A stretch of DNA of 61,465 nt, counting the filler, from Dugesia japonica (Eukaryota), in the NCBI GenBank assembly GCA_001938525.1. It is 5 parts of 5 records of this genome, joined end to end, with 100 filler letters (N's around TTAATTAATTAA, not from the genome) between each part and the next. Parts side by side here need not be neighbours in the genome. Positions count along the whole stretch, not along the records: positions 12,364 to 30,067 come from MQRL01596267.1; 4 more parts are not named here. One strand, written 5' to 3'. How positions within the stretch are numbered: position 1 is the stretch's first letter; every line of letters starts with the position of its first letter. This document shows, piece after piece, positions 672-34,397 of this stretch. The notes below the pieces were generated by a model. The model had not been told where the DNA came from. It did not search any database and saw nothing but the letters and a program-made list of their open reading frames with translations. The translations under genes and the position numbers were made by a program.

Positions 672-699
672 AATGATGCAATCATGATGATAAATCATG

Positions 700-1090: not shown

Positions 1091-4000
1091 CTTCAGACAT
1101 GTCTTTAGTATCGAATTCAACAAGTGGCTGGAGAAAAAAATATAAAATAATTCGTACAATTAATACACTAACTCTTAGCAAGTAACTAGTTTCCCAGATA
1201 CATATATGTCCATTTTCTCCGATTGTTGCAGCATATCGATTACCTGCAGATTTTGCAATGAGAATAATCTGAAACAATAAAGTTCACAAACAAATCAAAC
1301 ATATTATTAAATAAATATATTGAATAAATCCACTGTTGTAACTTGTTACTATAATAACAATTAAAAAGTAATCATTCAACATTTCAATATTATTATCAAA
1401 CCAAAATCTTAAAATAGTTTTCACGACTAGTAAATGCAAGATCCCATGATGAGCAATAAAGCACAAACTATTTAATATTTTAATTTAATTAAATTTTAAT
1501 TTAGTATAATACCATAGCTGTTTTAAATTTTTAATAGATGAACTAGTTTTTCATTAATTTAAAATACTTATTTATAATTAAATTTAATTTCTCATCTAAA
1601 CAAAAATTTAGAATTTCCAATTAATTAAAATATTACAATTACTTATATTATATGTTTAGCAAAGCAAAATTTTGTGAAGCTCAGAGATTTTCTTATCAAA
1701 ATGTTTAATTTTCCTATATTATACATCAATCTTCTCACTATTCGAATGACAGGGTATTTTAATTATCAAATTGAAGTAATAATTTTCAGATTTCTTTTAT
1801 TCATTGATAGCAATTCTTTTAGAAACTGTGTGCCACAATTGCAACACGAAATGCATTGATCTATATTTCCAATAATTTTCATAAACATGACGATCGTGCG
1901 CGCGTTATCTTATTTATTCATACTGTGGATAGAGCGTCGCGCAAGATTAAAATTTAATTCATTGGAACCAGATTTCTAATCTAACTTTTTGCCACATTGA
2001 AAATTAAAACTTTTAAGATTAAAAACGAATGAAATAAATTAAATATTTTTTATACTTTTAATTTCTGCAATAATTTAAATTTTACAAAATTAATAATTTA
2101 GATTGTTTCGTAATTAAAACAAATATTCTTTTTGATATAGTTTCTAATTTGAAAAATGCCTTTAGAATAATAAGAAAAACAATTCCTGAAGTTAATTCCC
2201 AAAGAAAACAATTGTCAAAAATTCGACTTAATAATAATAATAATACAAAAATAAAAAATAACATTTTGATATAAGCTTTTTAATTTATTGAAACTTTAAA
2301 AAAATCAATATTTTGGAAAATAAAAATTAATATCTCTTCTGGAATTTTGAAAAGTTGAGCATTTAGAATCTTGTATTAGGTTCTGAAACAGTTAGTCAAC
2401 CTTTGGTCAATGTTTAAGTTAACCCTTAGATGAGGCGAATTGTGGCGGTCCATCAGTCTTTGACAATAGCAAATTAAAGAAGATAATCGTACCTGATCCA
2501 GCTAAAACAACCATAGAAGTTTTCGAGGAACTCGATTTTGACCATTCGGCAGTACTTAGTCATTTAAAGCAAATTGGAAAGATGAAAAAGATGAATAAGT
2601 GGGTGCCGAACAGCTGATAGATTTTGAAAAAAAGCGGTGAAATATTTTATTTGTTAAAATTCAAATATTAACCAATTTTTTGTATTATTGATACTACATA
2701 TGTTTTTAGGCTTGGTGTGAATTTTATTAAACAATTAGAAGTACTTTTGATGAATTTTTGGGCACATTTGTTTTATGTGCTCAAAATATGATAATTTTTG
2801 GTTTCTAAAGCTTCATGTTCGTTTTAAAGGTTAAAAAATTTAGAAATCTGAAAATTTAAACAAATGTGACCAAATTTCACCAATTTACCACAAAATTTTA
2901 AAATATGTAGAAAAATCTTAAAACTTTAAACAAATTCGACGTTTTCCATGAATTTCCGTAAAAATTCAATCCAAAATTACCAATCCCGAGGAAAAATTAG
3001 ACCAATTTCACCTAAACCATGGCTATGGGTGGGTACGCGATAACTGTGCTAGTGCTTTACTATCAATTAAAAAATTAATTGTATACCTTATTTCCACAGA
3101 ATTGTTTATGTATTTGCTTGGAATTCATTATATTACTACCTATTTATATGATATAAAACTTCTTTGCAATCTTAATGCTTTAAAAATTCAAAAGACAAAT
3201 AAAACTTTGTTATAGATAATATATCATTAAATAAATATGCAACAGTGAATTTAGTAAAAGCTTCAAATAAAATTTGGAAAATCATGGTAATTATTTTTTT
3301 AATTAATAATTTTTTTGAAATTATTTTCTATGCTGGATAATCAAACAGTTTTAAAATTTCTAATTGTCAATCGATTAGCTAAAACGAAAACCATTGAAAC
3401 GATTAGTGTAATTGAAAATGAATTGTTGAAGTATAACGAAGGTAATATACATTTTAAAAAATTTTTAAAGCTGTTTTAATAGAAACAAAGTTTAATAAAT
3501 CTACTTATAGTTTCCTGAGATATCTTGAAAAAGACTATGATAGTGGCTTTGCTAGATTTAAAATGTAAAAAAAATCAACAGTTGCTGGAATCCAATTTAA
3601 TAGAAAAGCAAATAAAAATTTCTGGAACGCCATGAAAATCATGGTCAGAATCAAGTGAAAGAAGTAAAAGGTGAAAGGTACAGCAAGTATGTGGTAAAAT
3701 TGAGTTAAACTGATTCTTGCCAAAAACATCTTTTTATGCGGCCAAAGATTTGTGGAAACAAATACGATAAATATCTATAGATCATTTGATTTTAGTGTGA
3801 CTGGAGAAAAAGAAAAGATTTTATCTCTTCAGTAAACGAAATAAACTGATAAGATAATATGTAAAAATAAAAATAAATTTACTTGTTCAGATGAGGAATG
3901 TTTATTTGCCGTCATTGTTGCTTCTGAAACTGAATACACAATAATTTTTTAATCAGATAAATGGAAATTAATCTTACTAGAGAGAGGAACATTTTTTGTG

Positions 4001-6348
4001 CACTGTTTTTCGACAAATGTGCATTTATGTACACCATTTTTATTAGAAGGTTCGTAGTTGGCTATCAAATTGGAAATCTTTAAGTCACATTGGAAACATA
4101 ATATTCGATCATTTTCATTTTCTTTTGGATCATGATAAAATCCAACTTTCGACAAATTTTCTGGAGTCAGATTTCTACATTAAATTGATACATAAATTAT
4201 TTCTCAACAGAATTATTTCAAAATTCAAAATTGCATCATCGTATAACTTGAACAATGAGCTGAAAATATATTATAAATCATTTTATAGTATTTTTGACTG
4301 TCAATGAGGGAAAAATAACGTTCATCAGCTTTTTACTTCCATAACAATAATAGGTTATAGATCAGCGATATGACCCACGTTTTTATTTTTAAAAATTTTT
4401 AAAATTTTATATAATAATTGTATATAATATATATAATTTCCTAAAATTAAAGAGAAATAAAAATTAAAAGTATTAAAAAATTAAAGTATAAGTTTCTAGT
4501 GTTGAAATTATCAAAAAGTAGGTATGATATTAGTCTGTTTTAATGTGTTAATTAAATTATTAATGCATTTTTTAATTCATTATTAAAAGATTCACCATCA
4601 TTGCTATAGATGTTTATTTTCATTTTAAAGTTACTATTTATGAAAGTTATTCCCAATGAGATATATCAAGAAAACAAAATGAAAACGTTAAACCTAAAAT
4701 CGAAATTGAGAGCAATTCCTTAAATTTCTTTATTTTGCTTTTATATTTATTGTTTTATGATTAATCAAATTAAGTGTAAAATAACGAAGAAATTAAGAAA
4801 CCATGAAAATACTTGTATTTTTCANNNNNNNNNNNNNNNNNNNNNNNNNNNNNNNNNNNNNNNNNNNNNNNNNNNNNNNNNNNNNNNNNNNNNNNNNNNN
4901 NNNNNNNNNNNNNNNNNNNNNNNNNNNNNNNNNNNNNNNNNNNNNNNNNNNNNNNNNNNNNNNNNNNNNNNNNNNNNNNNNNNNNNNNNNNNNNNNNNNN
5001 NNNNNNNNNNNTAGAATATCCTTTAGTCGACAATTAATTGTTGCCATATTCCACTGAAATTAAATTTTCAGATAAATTTTACATGACATTTTATAAAATA
5101 TATTCTTTCTATTTATAAGGAAATAATTAATAATAATTTCATCTAAAAGAAATATAAGTATCATGAATTTTTAACATACAAGATGCAATTAAGACATTAA
5201 TTGCTTAACCAATGTCTAGAAAGCAACAGTCGGCCGACAGTGGTGTGACGAACTCAGAAAGTGCTCAAATCACTCTTACCATATGTTGTTTGGGTGTTCG
5301 TTGATAAGACTATAGTAGCATCCTCACTTAATTTCAGTTAAAGTTTAAAACAAAATTATTGTGTTTATGTTGATGTCTAGAAGTAGTTCTGACTAGCATT
5401 GATTTAATACAAATTTCACATTGCGGTGGGGCTACAATCTGAACTCCGATGGTCTCAGCGGAGTAATCACTATCGGTCTCGTTTGTGCAACGAAAAAGAG
5501 TAGTTCTTACACTTTCAACATAGACGAGCTATTCTATCTTTGGGACAGAAAATTAATTTGAGGTAAATTCACACATTTGTTTACTGGGTTTCATCTTCCT
5601 TATTGTATTCACTTTGTAAAATAATGTTACATTGCTAATAAAATTTGAATTGTTTCATAAATTCAATTATATAAATTAAATAATCATTGCACTTAATAGG
5701 TTGAGTTAGATAATACAAAAATCTATATAAAATAAGATTTGTCCTATTTTATATTATGATAAAATGACGCTTAGAATAGTTATTTCATTATGTGACAGTT
5801 GTACCAAAAATCTATATTTTATTGCTCCCCAAAAGTAATTAAGTTGAAAAATATTGTGAATAATTTTTATAAATAAAATAAGAAATAAAATTTCAGACCA
5901 TTTTTTAATATACAGTGAACTTTGCTTAAAGAGAACATCAACGGGACCGGCGATTTTTGTTCTCCATAATCGAAGTTTCTATTTAAGCAGAGTACANNNN
6001 NNNNNNNNNNNNNNNNNNNNNNNNNNNNNNNNNNNNNNNNNNNNNNNNNNNNGGACATCAATCTTTATTTATTGAGGTGTATAACATCATAAAAAATCAA
6101 AAAGATTTTCATCTATTCTAGAATTCATTATATCAATCAATCATCAATTATAATCACCTAACAAAAATCCAAAATTTTATCTATTAAAAAATTTATTACC
6201 AATAATAATTATTAATAATAAATAATCATGTATAATTTAAAAAATTTGAGTTTAATAATAGAAATGGAGCAAAAATTTTATTTGTATAAACAAAATAATA
6301 TTTCATCTATAATATTATTTTAATATTATTCATAATATTTATTATAAC

Positions 6349-6412
<64 letters not shown>

Positions 6413-9400
6413 NNNNNNNNNNNNNNNNNNNNNNNNNNNNNNNNNNNNNNNNNNNNNNNNNNNNNNNNNNNNNNNNNNNNNNNNNNNNNNNNNNNNNNNN
6501 NNNNNNNNNNNNNNNNNNNNNNNNNNNNNNNNNNNNNNNNNNNNNNNNNNNNNNNNNNNNNNNNNNNNNNNNNNNNNNNNNNNNNNNNNNNNNNNNNNNN
6601 NNNNNNNNNNNNNNNNNNNNNNNNNNNNNNNNNNNNNNNNNNNNNNNNNNNNNNNNNNNNNNNNNNNNNNNNNNNNNNNNNNNNNNNNNNNNNNNACCAA
6701 GTTTCTTTGATGGTCTCAGTCGAAATGCCGAAGATTGGATGCTCTCAACAAAAGATTTTGAGAAATTCAATCAAATGGAATTTGCTTTTGCGTTAGATAT
6801 GCTTCTAAGAGGTGATGCGAAACAGTTGAGAGAAGAATTTACCTGTTCAAATGATTCTTTTACCAAAAGGTCGAAAAATGGTTTATGGAAACATTTAAAA
6901 ATACAAAATCGATTGATGATAAAGTAAAGGAATTATCTATAATAAAACAGAGAACAGACTAGAAGTATAGAAATTTTGATTCTGATTCTCTTTAATATAA
7001 TTTTAATGTAATTTTTTTTAATTTATGACGTAAATTCAACATTGACAGGTTAGTTCGTTCACCATGGGTTATCGGTGGCGTGGGTATCAACAGCGGCGAA
7101 ATATTTTTTCGACTGGTATTATTCAGAAACAGAAATACTATCATCGGTGTTTTATTAAAATGTGTTGAAGTGGGTACAATAATCAACTGATTATTGGAGA
7201 GATTACATAAATCTCGAGGCTGTGAGATACAGACATTTAACTTTAAACCATAGCCTTAATTTATTTGGTTCAATTACTCACGCAAATACGCAAGCCATAG
7301 AAAATAGGTGGAACGTTTATAAATGCAAATACAGAGCCCGATTTATTACAAGTAGAAGTGATTTAAGTTTGATGTTTGCAAAATTTAAAAGAGAAATCTT
7401 AAATATTATAATGTCAAACTTGAATAAATTTGATTGATTAAAAATTATTTATCAATTACAAATTAATTAATTACAAATTATTAATTACAAATTATTAATT
7501 ACAAATTATTTGTCAATTTAAAGTTTTTCTTAAATTAGTTTAAAATATATCAAATAAATATCTTGGGTTTTTATTTAATTATTATATTACTACATTAATT
7601 ATTTAATATTTACTCGCAAAGCCGGATACTAGCCAAAATAATTTTTAAAGTCAATTTAAACCAAATTTTATATATTATTCTCTATCGATTAGTCGGTGAA
7701 AGATCAAATTGATTTTTCATTCATTTATTATTTATAAATAAAATAACATTTCATATATTTTAGAAATAAATTTCTATTAATCGAATTATATTTGAATTTC
7801 ATGTTGTTAAAACCCTATTGTAAACATTTTTGATATAATTCTTTTCAAAACTATAATTTTATTGATTTTATTTTCCCTTTCTAATTAATCAACATTTACA
7901 TAAAGTTGAAATCTGGGATGATAATTCAAATAATGCTTGTTTAATATCTTTTTTATTTATTAAATGATTCTATTAAATTAAATTTAGATGGATAAACCTT
8001 TATTTATTAATAAAATTAATTTTATGAACTTTAAAATTCTAGTTTTAAATCATGGATATTACTAAAGAGCATATTAGACATTGCATGGGTTTAAGATCAG
8101 TGTCAACGCAACGGTAGCAACCAATAATATTTGTGCCATATTTCAGATGTCATTGGTGTCCATTCCAAAAGTTTTGAAAAAGAAATTTTGATATGAAAGA
8201 CAACCCAAAATCGGGGCACCAACTCTAGTAGATGATGACATTTTGCTTGAAAATGTCGAATTAAAACATTGTCAATCGACACATAATTTGGAACACACAT
8301 TTGGTTGCGATCAGTAAATGATTTGGAATCATTTGGAAAGCATAGGAAAAATCTGTAAGCTCAGTATTTGGATTCAGCACAAGCTGGAAGATGAGAATAG
8401 AATTCAAAGAACAACCACTCTCAAGAATACTCGCCGAACTATTTTTGATCGCTTAATAACTGGTAATAAGAAATGGTTTCTATATGTCAACAACAAAAGA
8501 GATAGACAATTGTTAAATCCTAACCAGTCACTCATACCAACTGTCAGTTCTGGTCGAAAGTGTTATTGTCTGTTGGTGGAATATCCACGGTATTGTGTAT
8601 TGGGAGCTATTAGATGAGAATCGAACCATTAATGTGGAACTCTATGCTCAACAATTAGAGAAATATGTGTCAAAATATAAAATATGTGGTCATGCAACAC
8701 GATAATGCAAAGCCAAATACTGCTCGATTAATTTGGAAGCTTGAATGGGATGTCTTACCACATCTACCATATTTTCCTGACATCACACCACCAGATTATT
8801 ATTTATTTCGATTTCTTCAAAATCATTTGAATGACAGGAGTTTCAAGATAAAAAAGCCATTAAATAGAGATCTCGACCTTTGTCGACTCAAAGGAAGCGA
8901 AATGTTTTCGCAAAGGCATTGAAGCTATAATTTAAATATATACTTAAAAATCGCAATTACTTTGTACCTTTAATGACTTATTAAATATTTAAAATTAATT
9001 AATTTTTGAAAAAATCCATTTTTGTTTATTTATATAGTATTATCAATAATCTGATATTTATTATTCTCGATATGGATATCACGTCAATAATAATGGATAT
9101 TTGAAATCTAAATGTAGTAAATTAACTAAGCAAATGCTTACAAAATTAAGAAATTGGAATCGTGTTAGTAATTCTTATCCAGAGTTCGGTGGGATTGCAA
9201 AATTTAAAATGATAAAAGTTCGTGATTTAACGACTGGATATTATTCATATAAAGAACATGATAAGGCTTTTAATATTTTTCCATGATGTAAAATGTACAC
9301 AAGTTTATAAAATTATGTTCGAAGTAAATATTAGAGTTTATTAAAGCAAAAATATTATTACTGATTTAGAATTTTTAATGATTTTGTGAAAAAGACAAGC

Positions 9401-10257
9401 ATAATTTTAAGAAAATAGTTTGGTTCTCGTAAAATATTCGAATCAATACACTATTGATTGTTTAAGTTAGAAGCTCGATTCAGCTAATCTCTCTAAATTA
9501 TAAAGAGCCATGATAAATTTTAGTTTCATTCTATCTCGATTTGTTCTAATAAAAGTTTCAAGTTTAGAATATTTTATTTTTGAAAATTTACAATGAAGCT
9601 TTGTAATATTTTTGTAATTTTCACTAAGATTAATAATAACCTTTAAAAAATAAATACAAATTGATTAAATTCAAATTTTTAATAGATTTTTTAAAAATTA
9701 TTATAAAATATTATTTTAAAGTTTTTAAAATTAAATTAAATTATAAAGTTCAAACTTGATCAAAGTGTTGGCTTTCATTTGAAAAATACTGAAATTCCAA
9801 TTTATCTCGATTCATCCAATTAACTTCGTCCATTTTCAGAAGATCGATTAAATTCTGACCTTCTAGCACTGGGAGATCAATGAATATTCGTTCATGATCC
9901 AACTTTCGAGTTTGTAGTAAACTCTCAAATAATAGAATGTCCCCGAATTTCGATCGGCAATTAAAGACATTCCCTCGAGCGAACATGATTTTTTCTTTAC
10001 CCAGAAGTTGAATAACTATATTACTGTTAGCTGAAATTATTAGTTAAATAAATTTTAATAAATTTTAAATTTTAAATACATTNTCCTGTTAAATCAAATG
10101 TTTGAATAATATGTCCTTTTTCTGGATCCATAACTATTATTGATTGATTGTTTGCATAAACAATAGCATTAATTGCTGGAAAATAACACCATTCTTTAAT
10201 TATACCGCTTAAAGTAAGTCGAAAATTTTCAGAAATATTCATTTCAAAAATATTCAT
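1091..10257 (-). CDS. BIRC6: BIRC6/Bruce/Apollon-like gene, 5' exons (N-terminal beta-propeller and BIR). Exons ~10080-10257, 9756-10030, ~5400-5528, 3978-4174, 3883-3929, 1173-1268, 1091-1127
   Basis: Spliced exons are collinear with the BIRC6 N-terminus: WCYFPAINAIVY..IIVMDPEKGHIIQ (~YHPALNAIL..IKVIDGTSG), FNCRSKFGDILLFESLLQT..IDLPVLEGQNL (~GCRKDLNGILLLDTALQT..LELPVTEAQQL), LVYVESVRTTLF (~LMYSEANRRETF), GFYHDP..DRILCFQC..CTFV..TKNVPLS (~GFYHQP..DRAMCFTC..CPFV..TQNVPLS), GHICIWETS (~GKICIWDVS). GT-AG boundaries keep phase at the four junctions I resolved. The middle exons and the 5400-5528 exon's boundaries are unresolved. Confidence 0.8.
2426..2617 (+). mobile_element. mariner (DD34D) transposase fragment in a BIRC6 intron
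   Basis: LDEANCGGPSVFDNSKLKKIIVPDPAKTTIEVFEELDFDHSAVLSHLKQIGKMKKMNKWVPN: the second HTH plus the WVP(HEL) linker of mariners. Confidence 0.8.
3480..3760 (+). mobile_element. Possible Transib-like transposase N-terminal fragment (degraded)
   Basis: ISGTP*KSWSESSERSKR*KV resembles the GRP.K.F..SSERSKRRK motif of Transib-type transposases. Many stops. Confidence 0.35.
5910..5996 (+). mobile_element. pogo/Tigger-like element end (TIR), runs into a gap
   Basis: TA|CAGTGAACTTTGCTTAAAGAGAACATC..GGGACCGGC has the CAGTxxAC..CxxTTAA..GGGAC pattern of pogo-like TIRs after a TA dinucleotide. Confidence 0.4.
6349..6412. repeat. (AAT)n microsatellite; similar tracts at 47628-47681, 52546-52625 and 53590-53658
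   Basis: Direct trinucleotide repeats abutting assembly gaps. Confidence 0.95.
6697..6927 (+). mobile_element. Ty3/Gypsy gag fragment
   Basis: PSFFDGLSRNAEDWMLSTKDFEKFNQM..ALDMLLRGDAKQL fits the P..FDG....A..W.....L.G.A pattern of retrotransposon Gag. Confidence 0.55.
7029..7437 (+). mobile_element. Merlin (IS1595/ISXO2-like) DDE transposase pseudogene fragment
   Basis: RKFNIDRLVRSPWVIGG..RNRNTI..GTII/TDYWRDYINL..YRHLTLNHSLN..HANTQAIENRW carries the Merlin motifs WVFGG, SDxWxxY, HxTVNHS and HTQxIExxW. One frameshift. Confidence 0.85.
8052..8965 (+). mobile_element. mariner (DD34D) transposon, near full-length pseudogene
   Basis: MDITKEHIRHC.., WIQHKL, RLITGNKKWFLY, MQHDNAKPNTAR, WDVLPHLPYFPDITPPDYYLFRFLQNHL. 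A 3' TIR remnant AATCGCAATTACTTT lies at ~8950. Multiple frameshifts. Confidence 0.9.
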
Positions 10258-11477
10258 TTCAAAAATTGAGGTTACTCTTATATTAAATTATTAACGATTT
10301 AAAACAAAATTGAAATTTTTTAAAGTCAAATTATGACATTATATTTTAAAATTGTTTCAGATATATTTATGTTTATGTAATTATAATAAAATATTATTTA
10401 CGTATTTATACTTCATTGTGCAATTAATATCATTTTCAATTATTGATTAGTACTTTCAATATCTTCAGACATTTTGTAATGAATAATTTCAATGGTCATA
10501 TTATTTATTAGTATGACTATTGAAAAAAATAGTCATACTATTAGGAGTTATCCGTTAGGTACTGAAAAATTTGAGATATACTTAAAGAAGGTAGTAAGAT
10601 TAGTTATGTCATTTTTTTAAACAAGAAATTAACAGAAGAAATAATTTGACAAAAATGTTGGTTTTCTGTACAGAAAAAAGGAACTTTAGAGAAAATAACT
10701 TTGCACAACATTAGGAAGGTCAAGGATGTGAAGAAAACCTTAAAATTATTTGAAAACCNNNNNNNNNNNNNNNNNNNNNNNNNNNNNNNNNNNNNNNNNN
10801 NNNNNNNNNNNNNNNNNNNNNNNNNNNNNNNNNNNNNNNAAAAGAACCATTAATCAAAGAAATATGATCAAGAAGAAAAAACAAGACGATTTGAAAATGT
10901 AATAAAGTCAGGCATTTTAAACAGGATTTTTGGAATAAACCTGTAGTTGAATGTTAGAAATGTCACCAGAGAGTACATGTTATCTGAAATTGTCAGGTGA
11001 AGCCAGAAGTTCAATGTTATCGCTGTATACTGTAAGTAGATGGATAGTAGCGCAAGGGGTCAACCCCCGCAGGGGAAAAAATTATCTGACCCGATTTTTA
11101 GCGTTTTGATTGGTCTCAAACACGTTTCTAGCGTTTTTGATTAGTCGAAATTTTAAATTTAAGGTCAAGTGACACCGATNNNNNNNNNNNNNNNNNNNNN
11201 NNNNNNNNNNNNNNNNNNNNNNNNNNNNNNNNNNNNNNNNNNNNNNNNNNNNNNNNNNNNNNNNNNNNNNNNNNNNNNNNNNNNNNNNNNNNNNNNNNNN
11301 NNNNNNNNNNNNNNNNNNNGTTCAAATTAATTGATTTTTAAAATTTGTTTAAATTTACGGATTTTTGAGATTTTCATTAAATTAAATGAGTTAATGATTT
11401 TTATGGATTTTTCACAAAAAATCAATGGTATACCTATTTGGTTTAAATTTGCAAATTTTGAAGTGAATTTACCCCGT

Positions 11478-12263: not shown

Positions 12264-12363
12264 NNNNNNNNNNNNNNNNNNNNNNNNNNNNNNNNNNNNN
12301 NNNNNNNTTAATTAATTAANNNNNNNNNNNNNNNNNNNNNNNNNNNNNNNNNNNNNNNNNNNN
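12264..12363. other. Synthetic 100-nt assembly spacer N44-TTAATTAATTAA-N44 (also at 30068-30167, 39335-39434, 52446-52545)
   Basis: The same six-frame-stop 12-mer is flanked by exactly 44 N on each side at four sites. Confidence 0.95.
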
Positions 12364-12364
12364 A

Positions 12365-13750
12365 GATGTAATTAAACATACTGAAGCTAAATTAACTAAA
12401 CCTTTAGAATACAATTTAAATAATAAAATTACTAGTGAGATAAATAATCTTGATAAAGTTTATGTAAATGAATCGGGAGATAAAATAGAAAAACTAGAAG
12501 TTATTCAAGAACCTAAAACTGATAACGATGTTGTAAATAATAAATATTTAAAGAAATATACTGATCAAATTAAAAAGGATATAGATAATAAAACAACGTT
12601 TAAAATAAACTCACTTATTATTAGAGTAAATGCTACGATTGAAACTAAAATATTAGAATTTAAAACTAAATTAGATAAAGAAATTAAAAATCTACTAGAT
12701 AAAGAAATAAAACAAATCGAGTTAAAAACAAATGATAAAGTTAATCAAGTTGTATTTAATTCTTTTAAACAAGATCAAGATAAAGAAATTAAGTCTTTAA
12801 AAGATATTGTAAAAGATGTTGAGCTAAAATCAAATGATAAAATAAATCAAATTGAATTTAATTCTTTTAAACTGAAACAGGAAACGTCTTTAAAGAGTAT
12901 TCAAACAGAGTTTAGTAATAAATTAAATAGTAATATACGATTTACTTTCTTTAAGCATTTATATATTAATACTTTTAATGATCATTTATTGTCAATCATT
13001 AATAGAATAAGAGCATATGAAAACAATATAATTTAAAAATTGAGTTTTGGTTGTCATCTAATTTTCCTTTTGGTTTAGATAAGATAAATGATAATTTTTA
13101 TTTTGAATATTTAAGTGGTGGTGGTTTAACTATAAAAGGAAAACCTGAATTAAAATTGAGAAATGCGTCAGTAGGAAATACCTCTTCCTATAGTAGTGAT
13201 AAATGTTTTTATTTAAATAAAGGAGATTAGTTTATTTCTAGTTTTGAATTTAAAAAGACTTTGTTTTTATGATTCTTTTTAATAGAGAAAGTTATTCTGA
13301 TTTAAAAGGTGCGTTTATTAGAGGAGGTGAATCAAATAAAAATACAATAAAAGAATATAAAGGATATACAAATTATGTACAATTAAATAATGAAGAATTA
13401 TATCATGATCAAAAAGTTAATTTAACTTTCACGTATGCTCCTAAACCTTATCCTAATTTATTATATATTGAAAAGAAAGGAAATCGAATTACAATTAATC
13501 AAGGTATTCATGAAAAAGAACAACACATTACTATAAAAAAGATTTTGAATTTGAAAAACTAGTTATAGGAGATAAAAATACTAGTGGATTTATTTATGAG
13601 TGTTTATGTTATGAAACTAGTGACGATGAAACAAATAACATAGGTATATACCAACAGTTTTATGCCCTTTATAGTAAACAAACAAGAGTAGTTCGTGATG
13701 TTAATAATAAAAATAATAATGAAACAATTATAAAATCAAAGTTTTATTAA
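12365..13750 (+). pseudogene. Polinton fibre-like protein: coiled-coil stalk plus putative beta-sandwich (LamG/ConA-like) head
   Basis: A stop-free frame at 12365-13036 (~220 aa, no start, absent from the ORF track) contains YVNESGDK..EPKTDNDVVNNKYL and heptad repeats. It continues through frameshifts into a beta-rich region ending KLVIGDKNTSGFIYECLCYE. Confidence 0.6.
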
Positions 13751-13782
13751 ATTAAAAGCATAAAATCTTATTTTTAATAAAA

Positions 13783-14447
13783 ATGGAGAAAGAACATGAT
13801 CGTATCTATCCTGATATAAATGAAGAAGAACAATTTAATCGAACTGCATCTATAGCTAATAATAAAAATAAATTAAAAACATTAAGAATTAAAGATTTTG
13901 AAANCGATTTAACATTTTTAACAGATAAAATAAATCATCATTATTATATAAAATTAGAAGATGGAAAATGTTTGATACGGGTGTAAGATATGCCGATATT
14001 TTAATAGGATCTTTATTTGGTGCAACAGGAATAACAATAACTGTTTTAGCTACAAGTGGTATCGTTATTTTAACTTTAACTATTATTATTCTTGGATCAT
14101 TTCCTTTAACTAATTCATTTATTCATGGTTTATTAAATATCGGCTTAATTAAAAGAAGAAAGAAGAAATATAATGATTTAATTAAAGAATTAGAAACAAG
14201 TAAAAATAAATTATTTCTTTATCATCAGAAATGTTTACATGATAATATATTAACTGATGAAGAAATAAATACTAGTAAAACAATTGTTAGTGAAATCAAA
14301 AATAAAATNTTAAAGATGAAAACTGGTATTAAAGTTAAAGAAGAAAAAGAAATAGAAAAAGATAGTACATTTTTATTAACAAAGTTAAAGGAAATGGAAT
14401 CTTTAATAAATCAACCTACGCCAAAAGTAAGAAAGAAAATAAATTAG
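13783..14447 (+). pseudogene. Polinton/adintovirus two-TM membrane protein ('gasderminX'-like), frameshifted at ~13950
   Basis: RIYPDI..LRIKDFE..; FDTGVRYADILI followed by a hydrophobic hairpin; KRRKKKYNDLI..SKNKL..KCLHDNILTDEE. This is the IYP..RL..I / TM / KKKKH..I..S.LN...AL.D..IS.EE pattern of this family. Confidence 0.7.
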
Positions 14448-14518
14448 AAATAGATTATAATTGTTTAAATTGTATAAAATTGAAAATTAATTATAAAAAT
14501 TAAATTAAAATTTAAAAA

Positions 14519-14818
14519 ATGGCTTATAACTTATTTGAAAATAAAAGTAATGTTAAGGATATTATTGATGAAATCAATAGAAAAACCATTGATACTGTTA
14601 AATTTAAAAATGAAATTAAACTTGAATATAATAAAATTCAAGAAACAACTTTAATTGATAAATATGTATTTTCATTTGAATCTTATTTAAATTTACGCAA
14701 ACTACAAGAAAAAATTCAAATCTTAGCTACTAACTTTTATGATTTAAGCGTTGAATATGAAGATTTATGCGATGAAAAGATTGAAGATTTAACTGATCAA
14801 TTAAATTCTAAAATTTAA
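14519..14818 (+). CDS. Polinton small coiled-coil hypothetical protein (99 aa)
   Basis: Intact ATG-initiated ORF with AAAATGG context inside the viral cluster. Confidence 0.6.
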   Translation: MAYNLFENKSNVKDIIDEINRKTIDTVKFKNEIKLEYNKIQETTLIDKYVFSFESYLNLRKLQEKIQILATNFYDLSVEYEDLCDEKIEDLTDQLNSKI

Positions 14819-14826
14819 TTATAAAC

Positions 14827-15189
14827 AATGTGTCAAACGAAATTATTAATTATTTTGCTAATAGTAAAGAATTTAAGGAAGAAATTAAAGATGATTATAT
14901 TACCGTAAAAAAATTATCTCATGCAAATAAAGTTGCATTGGCACCAGAATTATTTATTAAATTAAAACAATATGAAGCAGCTGTAAAATTACCTGGACAA
15001 ACAATTATTAATTTAGATATTGAAAACGAAGCTTTGATACAACAACTGAAAAAGTATGATAAATATGATCCAGAAGAAATAACTAAAGCAATTAAATTAA
15101 AAGAATTAGAAGAATCTAATAAAGATCATCGTAATAGATTAAAACGTATATTATTGCAAACGTTAGATCAATTTAAGGATGTAAAATAA
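14827..15189 (+). CDS. Polinton small hypothetical protein (~120 aa); start apparently disrupted by a 2-nt duplication (ATGTGTCA)
   Basis: Open frame 14830-15189 directly downstream of the previous ORF. The ATG at 14827 is out of frame. Confidence 0.5.
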   Translation, partial: NVSNEIINYFANSKEFKEEIKDDYITVKKLSHANKVALAPELFIKLKQYEAAVKLPGQTIINLDIENEALIQQLKKYDKYDPEEITKAIKLKELEESNKDHRNRLKRILLQTLDQFKDVK

Positions 15190-15239
15190 AATAATAAACC
15201 AAATATCGAGCCAATAATTAAAATACATTTATTTTTATC

Positions 15240-15900
15240 TCTCTTTTATATAATATTAACCAATCTTTTATCTCATTGCAAATATAGCTTAACTGCGCCG
15301 ATTTTATCTCCATTTTTACTCATTTTGATTAAATTTTCATGCGTAAAAAATGTTTATCCATTTCATTAAATATTTCTTCACTTGTTTGTTTTTCCGCTTT
15401 ATTACTACTATTTATTTTTGCATCTCTCATCATTTGAACTCCATTCTGAACTAGTGTCTCTGTTTAGTTTTGAACTCCATTATGAACTAGTGTCTCTGTT
15501 TGGTTTTGAACTCCATTTTGCACTCCATTCTGAACGCAGACTCCATTATGGACTCCATTATGAACTCCGTTATCATTAAGATACGATTTTTTACATTTGG
15601 ACAAACATTCTAATTCATCATTATTAAATAATATTTTGTCTGTTCATCGTAGCTAATTATTTTGCAATTAGTATTTTCAATATAATCAATAAAATAATTT
15701 AAGTCTTCTGTATAATATAATTCTTTTAATAATATAATACTTGATTTTAAATATATCATATAATTATGATATGTAGTTTTCTTAATACATATTCCTGTTT
15801 CAAGCATAAAGAAATTTAATAATTAAGGAATAGTAATACGTTTGATTTTGTTATCTGGATTATTTATATATTTTAAGTGAAACAAATATATTTTATTCAT
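15240..15900 (-). pseudogene. Polinton hypothetical ORF(s) with NGV(H/Q) tetrapeptide repeats
   Basis: Minus strand: ..NDNGVHNGVHNGVCVQNGVQNGVQNQTETLVHNGVQN*TETLVQNGVQM.., encoded by 12-bp and 36-bp tandem units at 15435-15570. Confidence 0.5.
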
Positions 15901-15974
15901 AGTTATATAAATTTCATATTTAATCATCCATGTTTCTTCGTCTCATATTATAGGGTTTAAATCTGTATAGTTAT

Positions 15975-17885
15975 TATTGTATATTGTTTTACATACATCG
16001 TCTTAATTAGTCGGATGTGATGTATGATCAAAGTCATCATTCATTCCAAAATATCCCATAGAATATTTAAGCAAATTTTCGCTACTTGTCTTAAACCATT
16101 ATTAAATTTGACTTTATCTATATCTAAATCATAAGCTACATTGTCTGCAATTAATTGAATCTTTGTATTACAGTTGCTACCATTAGTACAGTTGCTATTA
16201 CAGTGTTTATCACAGTCGGGTGGACCATTTTCATTGTGTCTTTTACATTTACAACCGGAAGCTTCTAATTTATATTTCATAAATACATTTACATAGTCTT
16301 TGAATAAACCTTTTATTGTTTTTTCGAAATGATATAATTCATATATATGTAATAATTTATATCCTTTATCTAAAGCTTTATTTACTCCAATTGTTGACAA
16401 GTTCCTGTTATACTTCTTTCTTCATCATTATGGCTACATGGCGCATTTATACAATAAAAACATGTTGTGCATTGTTTTGTCTTAAATATATATTCATGTT
16501 TATTTTTCGTGCAATGTTCACAAGTATTATCCTTATGCGAAGCTTGCGCTTTAAATGTACACGTTGTATTTAATTTATGGTTTGTGCATTTGCTATTTAT
16601 TTTATTCATGCATGTTTTGCACAATCTAAATAATAATTTATGGGCGTTTATTGCTTCTTGTTGAAAAGGCAACACCGGCAAATATAAATTTCTAGGTGGA
16701 AGCATTTTACATTTAAGTAAGCCAAAATATGGTTTATCATTTTCATTAATTATAGCTAATATATTATTTAGGTTTATATATTCTTCAGGCATAATATTAA
16801 ATAATATTTGTGGATGATCTATCGGGATATTCGTCATATTTATTAATAAAGAAACTACATCAACATATCTTATCTTTTGATTATTATTAACTTTATAATA
16901 TAATTTAAATGGTTCTGTTCTTCCTCGATAAAAAGCATCTTTAGGTTTTAATTTATTTAAAGATGCTTCCGACTTAAAGTTTTTAAAATTAGGATTCTCA
17001 AATAAATATCTTTGATATTCATATTCCCACAAAGTAATATATTCGACTTTCTCTCGTCTTTCAGTAAAATATTTAATAATATTTTTCTTTTTAGTTTGAG
17101 TTCTATTATATAAATATTCCATTGATTTACTTACTTTCTTACATATTTTTTCTGTCGAATATCATTTAAAACATCCATGGAAATAACAACCATTAAATTC
17201 ATAAACGCAATGAATTTGCTTTATTGAATCATAATAAGATCCATTTAATTTATAATTACTTATTGCCTTTTCTCCACCTCTTTTGGCATGTTGTATATTT
17301 GTTGATATAGCTTAAATATTCGAGCCAATGTAAAGATTTGGAAGAATAAACATCGTCAAATTCAGACAGTCTTGGAATTCTTATTGTATTATTATTTATT
17401 ATAGACATAAATGTTTTTTCACATACTTCCGCAATGGTGATATATTGAAAAGGATCTAAATTCAATAAATTACCATTCGGCATCTTTATGTTCATAAAAA
17501 CATCTTTGTATATTAAACATCCTTTAGTTAGTATCATTACATCTGTTAGGCAATAATAAAATAATTCATTTTGAAAATTAAATATTTCATTGTTATTTAT
17601 TCTCTCATCATACCAAGCTTTTAATTTTTCTTTAATAGTTGTTAATTGATCGGTTTCTTTATCTTTTGCATTATTACTCATTTTTTCATAACCATAATAA
17701 TATAAAGACGGATAAGCCCCAATATAATTCTGATTTGCTATTGTATTTGCAAAATGAGGAAATTCCCCTTTTGTTCCTTTAAAGTCGAATGTTTCGGGAA
17801 ATGCTTTTATAGCACATAAAGTAAAACATAATGAATCAATGAATCTAATATTAAAATGTTTTACATGAATGTGTATAATCTTATT
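15975..17885 (-). pseudogene. polB: Protein-primed family B DNA polymerase (Polinton, VSR-like-domain-containing type)
   Basis: IRFIDSLCF..KAFPETF..KGEFPHFAN..NQNYIG; FNFQNELFYYCLTDVMIL (ExoIII); LDPFQYITIA; YSSKSLHWLEY; YEFNGCYFHGC (VSR-like); KDAFYRGRTE; IRYVDVVSL (motif A); LPVLP; GLRQVAKICLNILW (motif B). Frameshifted, and motif C (YxDTDS) is missing. Confidence 0.92.
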
Positions 17886-17889
17886 TCAT

Positions 17890-18700
17890 TAAAATAAGAA
17901 AAAGCTTCCATCAAAATAAAATTTATTTGTAAAAAGTTCAAATTTTCGACAATAGCCTTCTTCAGGAACATTTTGGCTTCTTGACATATTCAATACAATA
18001 AATCTTTGTTACTCAATTCTTATTTATCGAAATTTTATTGGTTTATTTTTTTTACTTTTAATTTTAATGATTTTAATTTTTATTTTTTAATCAACTCAAA
18101 AAATTTCAAAAATTTTTTTTGATTAATACAGAAAAGTTTTAGATATTTTAAATATATTATACTTAGAATTTTTTAATTTTAAATTTTTGTATTTTTTTTG
18201 AAAATTTTTAAAAATTTTGTTTTGTGTTTTTTATACATATAATTTATGTTATTTTAAATAAATATTATTTTATAAATTTCTTTTTTAAAATTCATTCAAA
18301 AATGAACTAATTTTACACACAATTATAAAATTAATTTTTTTTGAACTAAAAATTTTTAAGTTTCTTTTAAATTCGTATTAGGACAACTAATTAATACATT
18401 TAATTAATATTATTTCGTTTTTTAAATTTTTTATATAAGAAATATATTTATTTTAAAAATATTATTTATAGATAAAAACTTTTTTTTTAATCAAAAATAT
18501 TTTTTCAAATATTGTAATTGTTGAACACTACATTAATCTGAGGTNNNNNNNNNNNNNNNNNNNNNNNNNNNNNNNNNNNNNNNNNNNNNNNNNNNNNNNN
18601 NNNNNNNNNNNNNNNNNNNNNNNNNNNNNNNNNNNNNNNNNNNNNNNNNNNNATTATGTTTGTTTTGAAAGTGTTTGAAGACTTCACTTTCTTCCTGTAC
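17890..18700 (-). mobile_element. 5'-truncated Penelope-like retroelement inserted in pPolB
   Basis: EESEVFKHFQNKH..PQINVVFNNYNI* is near-identical to the GIY-YIG tail at 44400-44700. It is followed by an AT-rich 3' region ending in a hammerhead-like motif at 17936-17969. Confidence 0.7.
17936..17969 (-). ncRNA. Minimal type I hammerhead ribozyme-like motif (PLE-associated)
   Basis: Minus strand: GUUC-CUGAAGA-A-GGC UAUU GUC-GAAA-AUUU-GAAC. Stem I and II pair, and helix III is reduced to the palindrome AAUU, so it could only form as a dimer. Confidence 0.55.
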
Positions 18701-19151
18701 CGCTTGGTGTTGGTATAAGTAGAAATTCAAATTTTGTCGCATCAATATCTATTTCCTCTGATGATTGTAAAGCATGATATTATTTATCAAAGAATTCATT
18801 TACTATAGTTTCTCTCCGTCCTGTATGAAAATAACTACTTGGATTTAATCTAATCATAGTATGATAAGCAGTTATCTTTACAGTGTAATTAGGATTATTA
18901 TATGTAATGTCTAATATAAATTCTAAACAAGTTTTAATATTTACTTCAATCTTTGTGTAAGAAGAAATCGTATATGTGTGAAAAATTCCTCTATGTTGCC
19001 TATAATAATGCAAGCCAAGATGGTTGACTCGATTGAAATCGTCTATCTGTGCTTCAACAAATAAATCATCTCTAAATTGATGTTCTTCAAAAGGTAGTGT
19101 ATTATTAATAGCTGTCCAATCGTCTAAATGTGAATTCGGGTTTGTTGCCAT
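18695..19151 (-). pseudogene. Probable N-terminal (terminal-protein) region of the Polinton pPolB
   Basis: MATNPNSHLDDW... reads through one stop to FEFLLIPTPSGTG, which resembles the P.G.G motif closing pPolB N-terminal regions. Same strand, directly upstream of the pPolB core once the Penelope insert is removed. Confidence 0.5.
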
Positions 19152-19283
19152 TTTTTTAAAAACCAAAATAAAATTTATGCAAATATTCCAAGCGAAAATA
19201 TAGAAATTAGGATAATTATTTGAAAAGGTAAAAAAACATTTCAGACAAATTTTCAAACTGCATTAGCAATACGAAAAATCGTC

Positions 19284-19497
19284 ACACAAGGTGGCCCACG
19301 TCTTGGACGAACATCATTTGAAAATGAAAAAGCGCGAAGAAATAAATTTTTGGTGAATCGTTGAGCAACAATTAATTCCCTTGTGGACAATAATACTTTT
19401 TATAATTATAGAGAAAACTTCCTTTTACATCGAAAACATGGGTTATAGCTTTTTCATTTTCAAATGATGGTGGTCCAAACGGGGATCATCTTGTGTT
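19284..19497. mobile_element. MITE with ~50-bp imperfect TIRs
   Basis: ACACAAGGTGGCCCACGTCTTGGACGAACATCATTTGAAAATGAAAAAGC versus the reverse complement ACACAAGATGATCCCCGTTTGGACCACCATCATTTGAAAATGAAAAAGC. No clear TSD. Confidence 0.7.
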
Positions 19498-19529
19498 ACA
19501 TATGATTGATATGAAAATATTTCTTCATT

Positions 19530-20460
19530 ATTATTAATATTCATTTCCATTCTTTTTTTTGGATAATATTTATTATTTAATGAAATTTGTATACTTTTAT
19601 ACAATATTTTGTTGTAACTTTTCTTTTTTATCATTTTCTATAGTTATACTATTTTGTTGCATAAATAAATTATTATTTTTATCAAATGATATTTCTGCTA
19701 GTTTAAATACAATTAAAATAAATCTTGGTTTTTATACTAAATTAACCATTTTAATTGAATAATTTGTTCCTACTTCCATTGATTGATTTCCAGAACTACG
19801 ATTTAAAAATGATACTGGTATTCGTTTATTTATTGATATTTGTTCTATATATTCCATTTCTTTTATTGGATTTAATGTCGATTCTGGAATATGTAATTCT
19901 AAAGTTAATAATTTCAAATTTGCTGTTGCTGTAGCTTTACCATAAAATATTAATTTATCATCTATTTGTCTATTACATTCTAATCGTATAAATATATTAT
20001 ATAATAATCTATTATAATATTGAATAAATTCAAATAAATTATTTATTGGATAAAAACCTTCATATTTTATACCAGTATATAATTTTAATCTTGATTGATA
20101 TCCTTTATTTGTAGCTGTTGCTCCACCATCTTCATTATCTGGAATCCAACCATATGCTTTTGTATAATGTTTTGCTGATTCATCATATAAAATTAAATTT
20201 AACATTGTTTTAAATAATGATGGAAACCAATTATTTTCCAATGTTATTTTAGTTTCTGTAGTTGAATCGATTTCTATCCTATAATATAACATTGATTTTC
20301 CAATATCTAATGGATTTGTTGATTGTAATTATTGAAATAATATATCACAAGTTTGATTTAATTTTACTACACTTGTTGCTGATATTTTTAATAAATCATT
20401 CTTGGATATTACATGATTAAAAACATAATTATTATCTATATCTAATTTTAAACCTTCCAT
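19530..20460 (-). pseudogene. Polinton/adintovirus major capsid protein (double jelly-roll, PY-like), 3' truncated
   Basis: ATG at 20460; LENNWFPSLF; GWIPD..NKGYQSR; PINNLFEFIQYYNRLLYNIFIRLECNR; LELHIP; FLIVFK; SIQISLNNKYYP..MEMN. These MCP motifs occur in order, with stops and frameshifts. Confidence 0.75.
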
Positions 20461-21109
20461 TTTTAAGATAAAAATTTAAGCCTCGTAGAATCCAGCTCAA
20501 GAAGATTTCAATATAAATTACAAAAATAAATAATAAAATTAAAATTATTTTTATAAAGTATTTGAGAAATTCCACCTCTAAAATTAAATAATCACATCCT
20601 AAATATAATTTCATAACCTTTTCTTTTTCAATAATCATGTATTTATTTAGCATTTTTTTATTAATATTTTCAACTATTTAATTTATTAAAAGTTTTATTT
20701 ACCTTATAATTTACTATTGATTTATATCTTTCGAATATTCTTTTTTATTATAATTCTCTATAAAATTTTAAATTTTTGTCATTAAATAAATTATTATCAT
20801 TTAATACATTTTTCAAAATAATTATTTTCTTCTGTTAATTCAACATTTTCATTATGCATATCACATATAGTTTGAACTAAGATTTCACCAGTTTTTATAT
20901 TTGCTTTATAATTTCAATTAATTTCTTTTAAAATTACACTTTGTTCTTTAAGTGTTAATTTACATACTATTGAATAATCTTTTTTAAATCATTTAAAAGC
21001 TCTATCTTTTTTGTATGGTTTTTTTTAAATTTGTTGGGTTTTTAGGATTTTGATGTTTTAACTTTTATCTGCGAATTTTCCGAACTCATTTTTATAAATA
21101 TTATTTCAT

Positions 21110-21240
21110 CTACACGTCTAGGGGCATACCTAAAAACCACAAGTATTTATGTCACCTCTGTGACATGCCCTTTTCTTTCCTTGGGTTCAGTGCGACTTTG
21201 CGGTATCGCGTCTTACTCCTTGGCTTCCTGAACCCTGACA
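21110..21240 (-). repeat. GC-rich LTR-like fragment with an internal inverted repeat
   Basis: The minus strand starts TGTCAGGGTTCAG, and GGGTTCAG...CTGAACCC form an inverted pair. No partner LTR seen. Confidence 0.3.
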
Positions 21241-24200
21241 GCAATAATCCGCTTTACGCTCAGAAAAAAAACTTATTATTATAATTTTACTTCAACAAAT
21301 AAAAGTTAACGAAAATGAGAATACTCCATCCACATTCAGTAACATTTATTTAGGCACATTTCACCCTCCATTAATGGGCGTCTAAATCTACCGTTTCATA
21401 CTAACTGAATCTCATCTCTTTTCGGCAGTAATTTCATAATAACTGCATCTCATCTCTTTCCGGCAATAATTTCATAATGTTTTGCGGAAGCTCGATCACC
21501 ATATGTAATAGTGGGCACTCGGAATATGCATAAAATAATGATTTTAAATGTGAGAATGTTAATAAAAAAAATCTATTTACTTCTTTAATATTTTGTCTTC
21601 TCCGAACGTAAATTTAACCGAGTAGCAAGTTAGCGCAAATATCGTTTTGAACTGTGATAATTTCTCGAAGAATAGTGATCGTAAAAAAATTGATTGTGAA
21701 GTGTAGAACTTTCTTGTGCAAACGAGTTTTATTCCTCGTTTGCACCACAACTTGTAACTATTCGTTGGCTCGCCAATCAGGATCTGGTTCTTGCAAAATC
21801 AAACCAAAAAAAATTTTCCTGTAAGGTTGGGAGGGGTGGGTCAGTGCGCCACTTTCTACCTATTTATTATTATTTTTATAATAATAATAATTGTGGACTC
21901 ACGAAATTTAGACCAACAAAGATCCGAATTAGCATTCAAAAACGGCAATAAAACCAGGAAGCCCCGGTTATTAAATAATCAAAATTAATTTCGAAAAAGA
22001 ATTTTATCGATAATTATTCAAAAAAAAAATAATGAAGACGATCAGAACGAATACCGAATTATTAAGAAAATAATAAGTAGTAATAATGAAATCAATATTG
22101 GTCAACGGAAAATTAAGGAAGAAATCTAAAGGTTATCTAAATAGTTAAAGTCTTATTAAAATTAAATAGAAAAATAATAAGTGTAAATTAATTAATTTAC
22201 AAGAAAAAAGGAAAATTAATTCGACGACAATTTAAAAAGGGGCATAACTTCCCTCAGGAACATCGGAGGAAAAACTGGTTATAATAAAACATGGGGAATC
22301 TATTTTGACGAAGTAGAAAATGCTATCATCTTTAGGAGGACCAGGAGAACGTTGGAAAGTTTGAGCCAATAGGAAGTCGGAAAAAGACAAAATCAAAGCC
22401 ATCTATAAATCGAAGACTTCTATAATTAAGTACCCAACCAGGAGAATGCTAAAAAATCTGAAAATCAGCTAAGGGACCAATCATAAGTCTACAAGGAAAG
22501 TTAATTTTTGGTTAACTTGTTAGTTATAAAAAAAACTTACTAATCAACTTCTAAGAATTTACGATCAACAGCATAAAAGGCTTATCTTACTCGACAAAAA
22601 TCTCTGTTAGGAACGGAATTGAAGAACATTAATTACTCCTTAAACATTGCAGAAAGAGATACATTCTATAGTGAGTGCATTTTCTGTTGATTTATTTGAT
22701 TTAATAAATGAATGTTGAATTATAATTAGCATGATTTACAAATAATGTTTTAAATAAAATTCAGATAATTCATTTCATCAACACTATAATTCACATGTAT
22801 AAAATAATAAGCATTTATTCACAGGATAGAATGATCATCACCAATTTTGGGATAATTGAATGACACATCCCATCTATTAACACTCGAATAGTGAGAATTT
22901 TAACTTTCTTGGGTGATTCAGACAGTGGTAGCATTGATTATTATCAGTAATGTGAAATCAATTAAAAATCCGTTTTGCTAATTAACAGATACACCAACAC
23001 CGGTTAATCGAAAATTTTGGCTCCATTCCATTTTCCTCAGCAAGAATATTAGGCCGTCGCTGGTGAGCAGGAAAGTGTGTTGTCATTCACCACCATGTTT
23101 AGCTTGGTTAAAGACAGTCGTATAATTGCTAAATGTGATATGAATATGACTTCTCAAATGATGAGCCAGCCCAGTGGCTTGACTTTGAGGCTATTAATTT
23201 GTTGTAAATATATATTTATAAATCATATGTTTTGTCTCCATAAATTTAAATATAAAGTGGGAAATCTCGAATTCGAATGAAAGGTGTATGAGTATACACT
23301 CCAAATAAGCGTTGGGAGTCAACGAATCTGCACTGAAGGCCTAAATCATAGACTTTAGGTTAAATTCTTCGCGGGGTCCACTGAGGGCTGTCTTTTCCCC
23401 CAGCCATATTTTTTTTGTCACCCACTCAGGTGGAACCCCAGCATAATTATTATTATTTATTTGTTATTTTTTTAATCTTAAATTTGAAGAGATTTTATTT
23501 TATAATTTGAATTATCGTGATTTAATACAATGATAAATATCTATTTTCACATATCTTGAAAAGAGTGATTTATAGCAATGTAATTATATTTAGAAGACTA
23601 AAATATTTCATAAATTATCTTACAGTTATATTTCATTGACAAAAATACATAAACGTTATAATTGTAAAAGTAAATATTTTTTCAATTTCTTATTCTTATA
23701 AAGCTATAATTTTTTTTCTGTCCTTTCTATCTTTACTTTTTTCACTTGTTTTATTTTCTGGAATTAAAAAGAAGTATTATGAGTTTTCAAAATTTATTTT
23801 TAGTATATTCACGTGTTGAAAGATTAATTGATTTGCTTAAATAATTTGCAGATTTCATAAATTATGCGGAAATAGAACGGAAATATGCAAAAAATTCCGA
23901 ACTAGTTTTGATCAGCAACGGCCCTCTTTGAAAAAAGGTTTGTTTTGGACATAATTATTGATTGTAACTTCAGAATTATTAAATTATCAAATACTGTCAA
24001 GCATTTTTTATAATGTATTGAATATAATTAAAATTAAATAAAATGAAAAATTTTCATCAACAATTTTGAAATCAAATTGTGTATCAAATCATAAAATACT
24101 TGATTAACCCTCAACCAACTGAAAGATTTTTCTAACAAATCCAGCTGACTAATGTCCAATGAGCACATGAGCATATCCAATGAAATTTTATGCCAAACCC

Positions 24201-33850: not shown

Positions 33851-34397
33851 TCACTTGTAGAAATCGTTTTTTTGTTCGGGATAAATAAATATTCTAACAA
33901 AATCATATATAATTGTAACAACACCTTTATAAGAAGTTCTTGGTACACCTTCTTTAATATCAGACAATAATTTAAAAAATTCTGCTATTTTTTGGTATTC
34001 CTTCATTGAAGAATATTTCATACGAATATTTGAAGTGTAATTTATAGGTTTTAACATATCTATGATAGTTTTTTCAGAAGTGTTATAAAATATTTGTTCA
34101 GTCCACCATTTATCGAAAGCTAAATAATTAAGATAACTCAAATTTAGTTGAGTAAAATTTACATATCTTTGATTGAGAAATTGAAATTTCAAATGAGAAT
34201 CATAAAACTGAGAATTTGAAATACCATATTTACCAAAAGTAAGAGATCTTGAAATTTCTGGCCGAATACAATGACGATTTTTTCTGTTTTTATTTTTTCT
34301 CATATATTCATCCCAAAAACATTCTGACCAACCAGGTTCTACTTCTAACCACAATGATTTTAACATCATCCAACCAAGACCTCCAAAGAAATCCGTC
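33851..34397 (-). CDS. MGAT1: Alpha-1,3-mannosyl-glycoprotein 2-beta-N-acetylglucosaminyltransferase (GnT-I, GT13), terminal exon
   Basis: After the AG acceptor at 34398: TDFFGGLGWMMLKSLWLEV..W..FWDEYMR..RKNRHCIRPEISRSLTFGKYGIS..QFYDSHLKF..GVPRTSYKGVVT, all GnT-I motifs. Upstream exons not located. Confidence 0.88.

Follow-up and report, generated by a model that had tools for sequence, protein, structure and literature searches.

The window analysed here is a stretch of 61,465 nucleotides from Dugesia japonica (assembly GCA_001938525.1), and positions 12364-21861 within it hold a cluster of broken genes that converge from the two strands. The + strand carries a fibre-like open reading frame (ORF), a gene for a two-helix membrane protein (2TM) and two small ORFs, and the - strand carries a major capsid protein (MCP) gene, a terminal-protein (TP)-like region, a protein-primed DNA polymerase B (pPolB) and a repeat protein (Table 1). 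A preliminary description of this DNA had listed these parts as an intronless convergent cluster, and each was found in the place and on the strand assigned to it, with no introns. As set out below, the stretch is very probably a decayed member of a multicopy Polinton family (Maverick/adintovirus-type), cut short by a contig end, with capsid, protein-primed polymerase and membrane-protein genes.

The candidate MCP gene is recognised by the Pfam double-jelly-roll (DJR) profile PF21738. With its in-frame stops read as X, the capsid frame scored 31.9 bits (cut-off 27); the natural 198-aa piece scored 22.4 bits, below that cut-off. A phmmer search found 44 capsid relatives among 1.84 billion representatives, the best of which (P0003) is 44% identical (E 5e-34), and the PF21738 cut-off was exceeded by 10 of 10 full-length relatives tested. 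A profile built from 16 of the relatives covers the window at profile positions 8-343 of 422; the match stops at the 219-bp inverted-repeat element, and the last ~80 positions are lost. An AlphaFold2 (AF2) model of P0003, made from a 32-row alignment (pLDDT 86, pTM 0.86), was compared by Foldseek and matched PBCV-1 Vp54 (E 2e-15) as well as the Sputnik, iridovirus and mavirus capsids, with probability 1.0 for Vp54, Sputnik and mavirus. Other matches of the P0003 model were to viral models, adintovirus and MELD virus entries among them. The MCP placed on the - strand by the preliminary description thus has a double-jelly-roll match, both by PF21738 and through the Vp54 fold of its relative, and the assignment as a DJR MCP is supported by profile and model.

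Table 1. Features of the element and the adjoining spacer, in window coordinates.
Feature	Position	Strand	Remarks
Assembly spacer	12264..12363	.	44 N, TTAATTAATTAA, 44 N; element cut by contig end
5'-cut ORF, Lys/Glu-rich helical-looking stalk and broken C-terminal part in four pieces	12365..13750	+	fibre-like by position only
2TM membrane protein, labelled 'GasX-like'	13783..14447	+	two frames, one frame change near start
Small ORF, 99 aa	14519..14818	+	no family
Small ORF, 125 stop-free codons	14812..15189	+	no family
Broken ORF with 12-residue-type repeats	15332..15643	-	36-bp and 12-bp tandem arrays at 15433-15573; translation
Small broken ORF after truncated polymerase	15613..15915	-	no family
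pPolB remnant: Exo III region, VSR-like insert, motifs A and B, two Cys-rich inserts	15916..17885	-	four frames/pieces; motif C and C-terminus absent
Penelope-like insertion: GIY-YIG end and very high-copy repeat, minimal hammerhead core 17944-17965	17886..18693	-	partly N
TP-like pPolB N-terminus	18690..19151	-	one in-frame stop; LQS...PxGxGR linker; no Pfam match
MITE-like element, 53-bp inverted arms	19281..19499	.	219 bp; lies where capsid match ends
DJR MCP gene	19500..20460	-	two in-frame stops, ~21-residue internal gap, one frame change, C-terminus absent
Small hydrophobic ORF, 73 aa	20432..20653	-	overlaps capsid start; KD19 2.9; no family
Degraded Lys-rich ORF	20800..21090	-	read by eye; no family
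Likely right terminal-repeat region	21100..21861	.	GC 36.5% vs 17-25% inside; 38-bp tandem; ends ...TTCTACCT

The pPolB reported on the - strand was recovered by PF03175, above its cut-off at 17259-17885 (E 6e-7) and below it at 16044-16421 (E 4.5e-4). By tblastn, three pieces matched the relative P0002 and its full-length cluster member P0054 at residues 599-1103 of 1382 (E 1e-21 to 6e-4), and motifs A and B could be mapped; the last ~140 bases of the remnant were assigned by eye only. Motif C (position 1195 in P0054) is missing along with the C-terminal part, in agreement with the earlier report of a lost PolB C-terminus. A further ~340 residues (vOTU, Exo I and Exo II) are missing between the TP part and the resumed match, at the site of the nested insertion. 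The ORF starting at 19151 was read as the putative TP part described in PMC11161782, in which a TP-vOTU at the pPolB N-terminus is a Polinton trait, because its linker at 18690-18779 resembles residues 222-247 of the PolB relative P0001. Of the TP-like region in the preliminary description, the ORF from 19151 to 18690 is present, and its label comes from this single 27-residue match (pairwise E 0.018). The window pPolB gave no direct VSR profile match; its YEFxGCxFHGC-type insert aligns with an insert of P0002, and P0002 itself has only a sub-cut-off match to PF18741. A novel VSR-bearing polymerase class in flatworms was considered and ruled out, since group I Mavericks are already characterised in the literature by a VSR insert (PMC10328495). 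The palm and fingers also contain two Cys-rich inserts, at 16150-16290 and 16430-16620 (-), that P0002 lacks; as other copies cover both intervals, we regard the inserts as a family trait. The repeat protein noted downstream on this strand has a 36-bp tandem at 15433-15524.

On the + strand, the 2TM gene is taken to be real because an intact relative, P0050 (236 aa), exists; it is 62% identical to the window protein over 160 aa. The window protein has a single long hydrophobic stretch (KD19 2.55), long enough for two helices. The two-helix gene of the preliminary description is thus present, and the gasdermin homology implied by its 'GasX-like' label found no counterpart: neither the window ORF nor P0050 matched a gasdermin in Pfam or among PDB sequences. 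We take that label as one of resemblance. In the ESM Atlas, the nearest neighbours of P0050 were unnamed eukaryote/virus clusters (0.90), with a DUF4231 feature match at 0.85; its structure comparison with a SLATT_4 cluster gave TM 0.50/0.58, below the Atlas naming bar. The window piece found only matches under 0.8 there, and Pfam SLATT matched neither protein. The modelled resemblance to SLATT 2TM proteins is a lead only. SLATT genes are reported to be common in protist Polinton-like viruses and are proposed to encode escape pores (PMC12220804; 10.64898/2026.10.13.758929). No paper equating SLATT with GasderminX was found in a search that most subscription papers lay outside; the one paper found with both terms applies them to different viruses.

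The remaining + strand ORFs are less readily named. The stop-free piece at 12365-13036 runs for 223 codons (P 9e-12), and the ORF that contains it has an internal 104-bp duplication. It had no match to Pfam, PHROG or other profiles, its heptad test was not significant (213 of 2000 shuffles as high), and the ORF in the same slot of a metagenome locus, L013, reached E 0.32 only. A + strand ORF is present where a fibre-like gene had been reported, and the fibre label is unproven. Both small + strand ORFs are also present, and for each of five + strand stop-free pieces tested (100-223 codons), the probability of such a length arising by chance, given the local composition, is 1e-5 to 1e-11.

The copy is inert and could neither replicate nor produce capsids. 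Stops, frame changes and deletions are present in every core gene, and the losses in PolB and MCP described above exceed the damage for which the preliminary description had called it dead. It is also interrupted by two nested elements of the kinds named there. The miniature inverted-repeat transposable element (MITE)-like element has arms 85% identical (E 5e-9) and a strong DNA fold (z -8.05, 0 of 200 shuffles), with no target duplication seen. In the Penelope-like insertion, 40 bases are 95% identical to 44533-44572, where a GIY-YIG-like frame without a Pfam match was read by eye. The hammerhead core motif has two matches in the window and none in 100 shuffles; the cores, at 17944-17965 (-) and 45168-45188 (+), belong to a repeat of very high copy number that is associated with GIY-YIG relics, with degenerate cores at 43.9 and 44.3 kb. 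The core at 17944-17965 is a motif match only, with no Rfam match and no favoured fold (z 0.69); a minimal hammerhead has been described for Penelope terminal repeats (PMC4209133). An alternative reading of 17886-18544 as a MITE was rejected, since no terminal inverted pair was seen beyond A/T-rich chance matches.

The likely right terminal region has no inverted partner within the window. Its 38-bp tandem, at 21394-21478, includes a TTTCCGGC-type site, and TTTGAA/GCGCGAA words occur at 19313-19340, in an arm of the inverted repeat that lies upstream of where the polymerase starts; these resemble E2F/CHR sites. The end itself, ...TTCTACCT, is near but not identical to the AG/AGT end motifs of Polintons in PMC8097293, where most copies are degraded. 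On the left, the element runs into an assembly spacer whose middle is a 12-base palindrome, and the same 100-bp layout occurs at four places in the window. The preliminary description was right that the segment has no ATPase, protease or integrase, and their absence is uninformative because the left end abuts this spacer. The ATPase, penton and protease also gave no match in the window when 167 ORFs of metagenome loci were searched against it.

Gene co-occurrence was examined in metagenome data, in which 60 pattern matches yielded 19 loci with a capsid relative; the four longest (at least 4.7 kb) were read. Penton-like ORFs, judged by eye, were present in 4 of 4, a Pox_A32 ATPase above cut-off and protease-like ORFs (motif or weak Pfam) each in 3, and the catalytic part of PolB in 2. 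One locus, L013, begins with capsid, ATPase and an ORF, continues with penton-like, protease-like and small ORFs, and closes with a 2TM homologue and a PolB that converges on it; the window shows this last arrangement too. The L013 2TM homologue has a pairwise E of 3e-8 to the window protein and an E of 0.009 against the whole window. The genes thus co-occur in independent loci rather than mapping to unrelated elements, and together with the DJR capsid match this supports the Polinton/adintovirus identity first proposed. Outside these loci, a word-index search for longer capsid relatives returned 0 of 393 candidates, viral contigs scanned with the capsid ORF, the PolB piece, P0003, alignment A2, P0002 and P0050 gave no relative, and none was found in phage records.

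A 28-row capsid tree, built without relatives shorter than 280 aa and with the window row filling 46% of columns, groups the window capsid with a second metagenome locus, L001, in a clade of 10 rows (support 100/99). For PolB, the match of the window is to P0002 (E 2e-26), and the HNH-type PolB of L001 gives no match (E 0.07). The element would then combine a polymerase of the VSR type with a capsid clade in which the closest locus sequenced has an HNH-type polymerase, a hint of module exchange that we infer from these alignments. Exchange of polymerase and virion modules has already been reported (PMC8502044, PMC10748475). L001 and L013 share the capsid family with the window, and L013 also the 2TM gene and convergent PolB; they differ from it in having polymerases of another class (L001 with the HNH-type motif) and a differently placed capsid gene. 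L001 itself is intact-looking, with an HNH-type PolB of at least 1414 codons and features at 3-4244 (-) and 7609-8877 (+).

Reads of two DNA and two RNA runs were placed on 12364-18460 at 80% identity, in 30 bins. All 30 bins were covered in both DNA runs, which come from the same species. Summed depth, which is no copy number, was 1023-9750 for bins 1-11, 71-1834 for bins 12-27 and 2-6 x 10^5 for bins 28-30; single long contigs, for comparison, had a depth of 3-26, and each listed site that lies outside the nested repeat had up to about 40 contigs. Over 12364-17871, the family is clearly present in many copies in the host genome.

Taken together, two defining genes and a multicopy state are present, and the element works like, and almost certainly is, a Polinton; it is possibly a copy of an already named family. 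Intact ancestors would likely have copied themselves by protein priming and integrated via an integrase that this piece lacks, and their packaging into icosahedral particles is a prediction. By analogy with the family, a terminal protein at the pPolB start may prime synthesis at inverted ends, a packaging ATPase, penton, protease and RVE integrase would have lain to the left, beyond the assembly gap, and the 2TM protein may act on membranes at entry or exit. Of the virion-forming lineage proposed in the preliminary description, the DJR capsid is supported; whether the family makes particles has to be judged, as in all such Polintons, from its genes, which make it likely.

Several observations weigh against this interpretation. 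The piece falls short of the full Polinton definition, since integrase, ATPase, penton, protease, left terminus and 6-bp target duplication are lacking. The DJR fold is that of P0003, a relative of 44% identity, transferred to the window, and the window capsid ORF folded alone from its single sequence was uninformative (pLDDT 35); the TP and VSR labels come from short or indirect matches, and any particles are predicted from gene content. In each of the two DNA runs, summed depth falls 3- to 10-fold at ~14600, where the 2TM gene gives way to the small ORFs, as joined elements would also give. Finally, no clear transcription was seen over the 27 Polinton bins of the 12364-18460 part in two poly(A)/cDNA runs, of which 6% and 25% were read: RNA depth was at most 0.27, with one bin at 1.22, and 95-96% of the placed reads continue unlike the stretch. 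No RNA run was listed as containing the stretch.

This lack of clear RNA would suit a family that spreads only within cells as a self-synthesising transposon, its capsid, fibre-like and 2TM genes being inherited baggage that forms no particles. The capsid is dead in the window copy, concerted loss of virion genes has been reported for some Polintons (PMC4028283), and planarian Polintons are known piRNA targets, silenced by SMEDWI-2 (PMC8532177). We hold a purely intracellular life to be somewhat improbable and still to deserve serious weight. The drop in depth raises another possibility, that the segment joins two different Polinton copies, the fibre-like/2TM block having come from an abundant family and the small-ORF/PolB/capsid block from one that is less common. 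Both DNA runs have summed depths of 1000-9800 in the 11 bins to 14607 and 70-1800 in the next 16, no contig among those listed spans the whole stretch, and the window copy has several other deletions. Yet L013 shows the same order of fibre-slot ORF, 2TM gene and convergent PolB, the small ORFs run on head to tail on the same strand with no repeat or gap at 14450-14520, and the depths do not count copies; such a join appears quite unlikely. That the contig came from a free virus or a contaminant and was scaffolded with host sequence in the assembly, as its left-hand contig break and the environmental origin of the best capsid relatives might suggest, is largely refuted by the nested host repeat (10^5 summed depth) and the host-like DNA that continues past 21861 without a gap, and is barely credible given also the damage in every core gene and the matches in DNA runs of several studies and years from one species.

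The Polinton identified here belongs to a class already on record in flatworms, and the suggestion that the lineage is probably poorly described there fails. Four Schmidtea mediterranea elements (Polinton-1_SM, Polinton-2_SM, Polinton1_SM and Polinton2_SM; 11.6-15.9 kb) are tabulated in PMC4028283 (Krupovic 2014; Table S1), three with MCP, four with penton and ATPase, two with protease, and two with MCP, penton, ATPase and protease together; unlike them, the window copy is dead and cut, and it is likened to them by gene content, not sequence. A literature search with the Repbase names of the Schmidtea Polintons found no relevant paper. In addition, 748 integrase-linked pPolB1 copies are listed in 8 of 73 flatworm genomes (PMC10748475, Jeong 2023, Table S2), and a Dugesia preprint reports Maverick expansion.

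Among other known systems, close parallels are found in adintoviruses with an Alpha PolB and a Terrapene-class (Beta) virion module (PMC8502044), labels which for the window come from motifs and pairwise scores, not reference sequences. As in the window, a pfam03175-type PolB lies beside a 2TM 'GasderminX'-like gene, and the relatives of the window capsid likewise sit with a divergent PolB class; unlike in those viruses, no pX-like tail, cupiennin, adenain or integrase was seen in the window piece. The examined part of the PMC8502044 supplement contains no flatworm term, and flatworm adintoviruses could be missed there. Group I Mavericks (PMC10328495, which cites Kapitonov and Jurka 2006; papers vary in how they number the groups) have a VSR insert in pPolB, to which the YEFxGCxFHGC-type insert of the window between exonuclease and palm may correspond; the window PolB differs in having two extra Cys-rich inserts. 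SLATT proteins of Polinton-like viruses (PMC12220804) are, like the window protein, two-helix membrane proteins in a virion-gene neighbourhood; as differences, neither the window protein nor P0050 has a Pfam SLATT match, and the Atlas scores lie below the naming bar.

As it stands, the finding has little import, being one more dead copy of a class already catalogued in planarians; what interest remains lies in the resemblance of the 2TM protein to SLATT proteins, which is a lead, and in the hint that polymerases are exchanged beneath a virion block held in common. A bolder reading, which we think unlikely, is that planarians harbour particle-forming adintoviruses with the fibre-plus-2TM entry block in far more copies than any polymerase, polymerases swapped under a common virion module, and a 'GasderminX' that is a SLATT-type two-helix pore. 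Such a pore would be the device proposed for endosomal escape in protist Polinton-like viruses; it would unite animal Polintons with those viruses and correct the gasdermin label. Particles in planarians would matter, since virions of integrated animal Polintons have been inferred, not seen, and planarians are tractable animals in which Polintons are abundant and piRNA-controlled.

The DNA around the element includes a second Polinton relic at 1-670 (+), a chromodomain-like tail followed by a penton-like N-terminus, with no Pfam match. We take the tail to be of the kind found on Polinton integrases. This relic was considered as the left arm of the element and rejected, a host BIR exon, other host-like exons and a contig break intervening. 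At 9050-9286 (+), a 78-codon stop-free piece has a protein-like look and no Pfam match. Host exons lie at 1083-10287 (-), with a BIR domain at 3952-4179 (PF00653) and propeller-like pieces, and may belong to a BIRC6/Bruce-like gene. A GNT-I exon at 33854-34402 (-) and an intronless rhodopsin-family G-protein-coupled receptor (GPCR) gene (PF00001) at 54322-55443 (-) lie to the right. The BIR, GNT-I and GPCR coding pieces, together with transposase and reverse transcriptase relics, make up the host context of the window; with a GC content of about 23% overall (17-25% inside the element), they indicate an animal-like genome.

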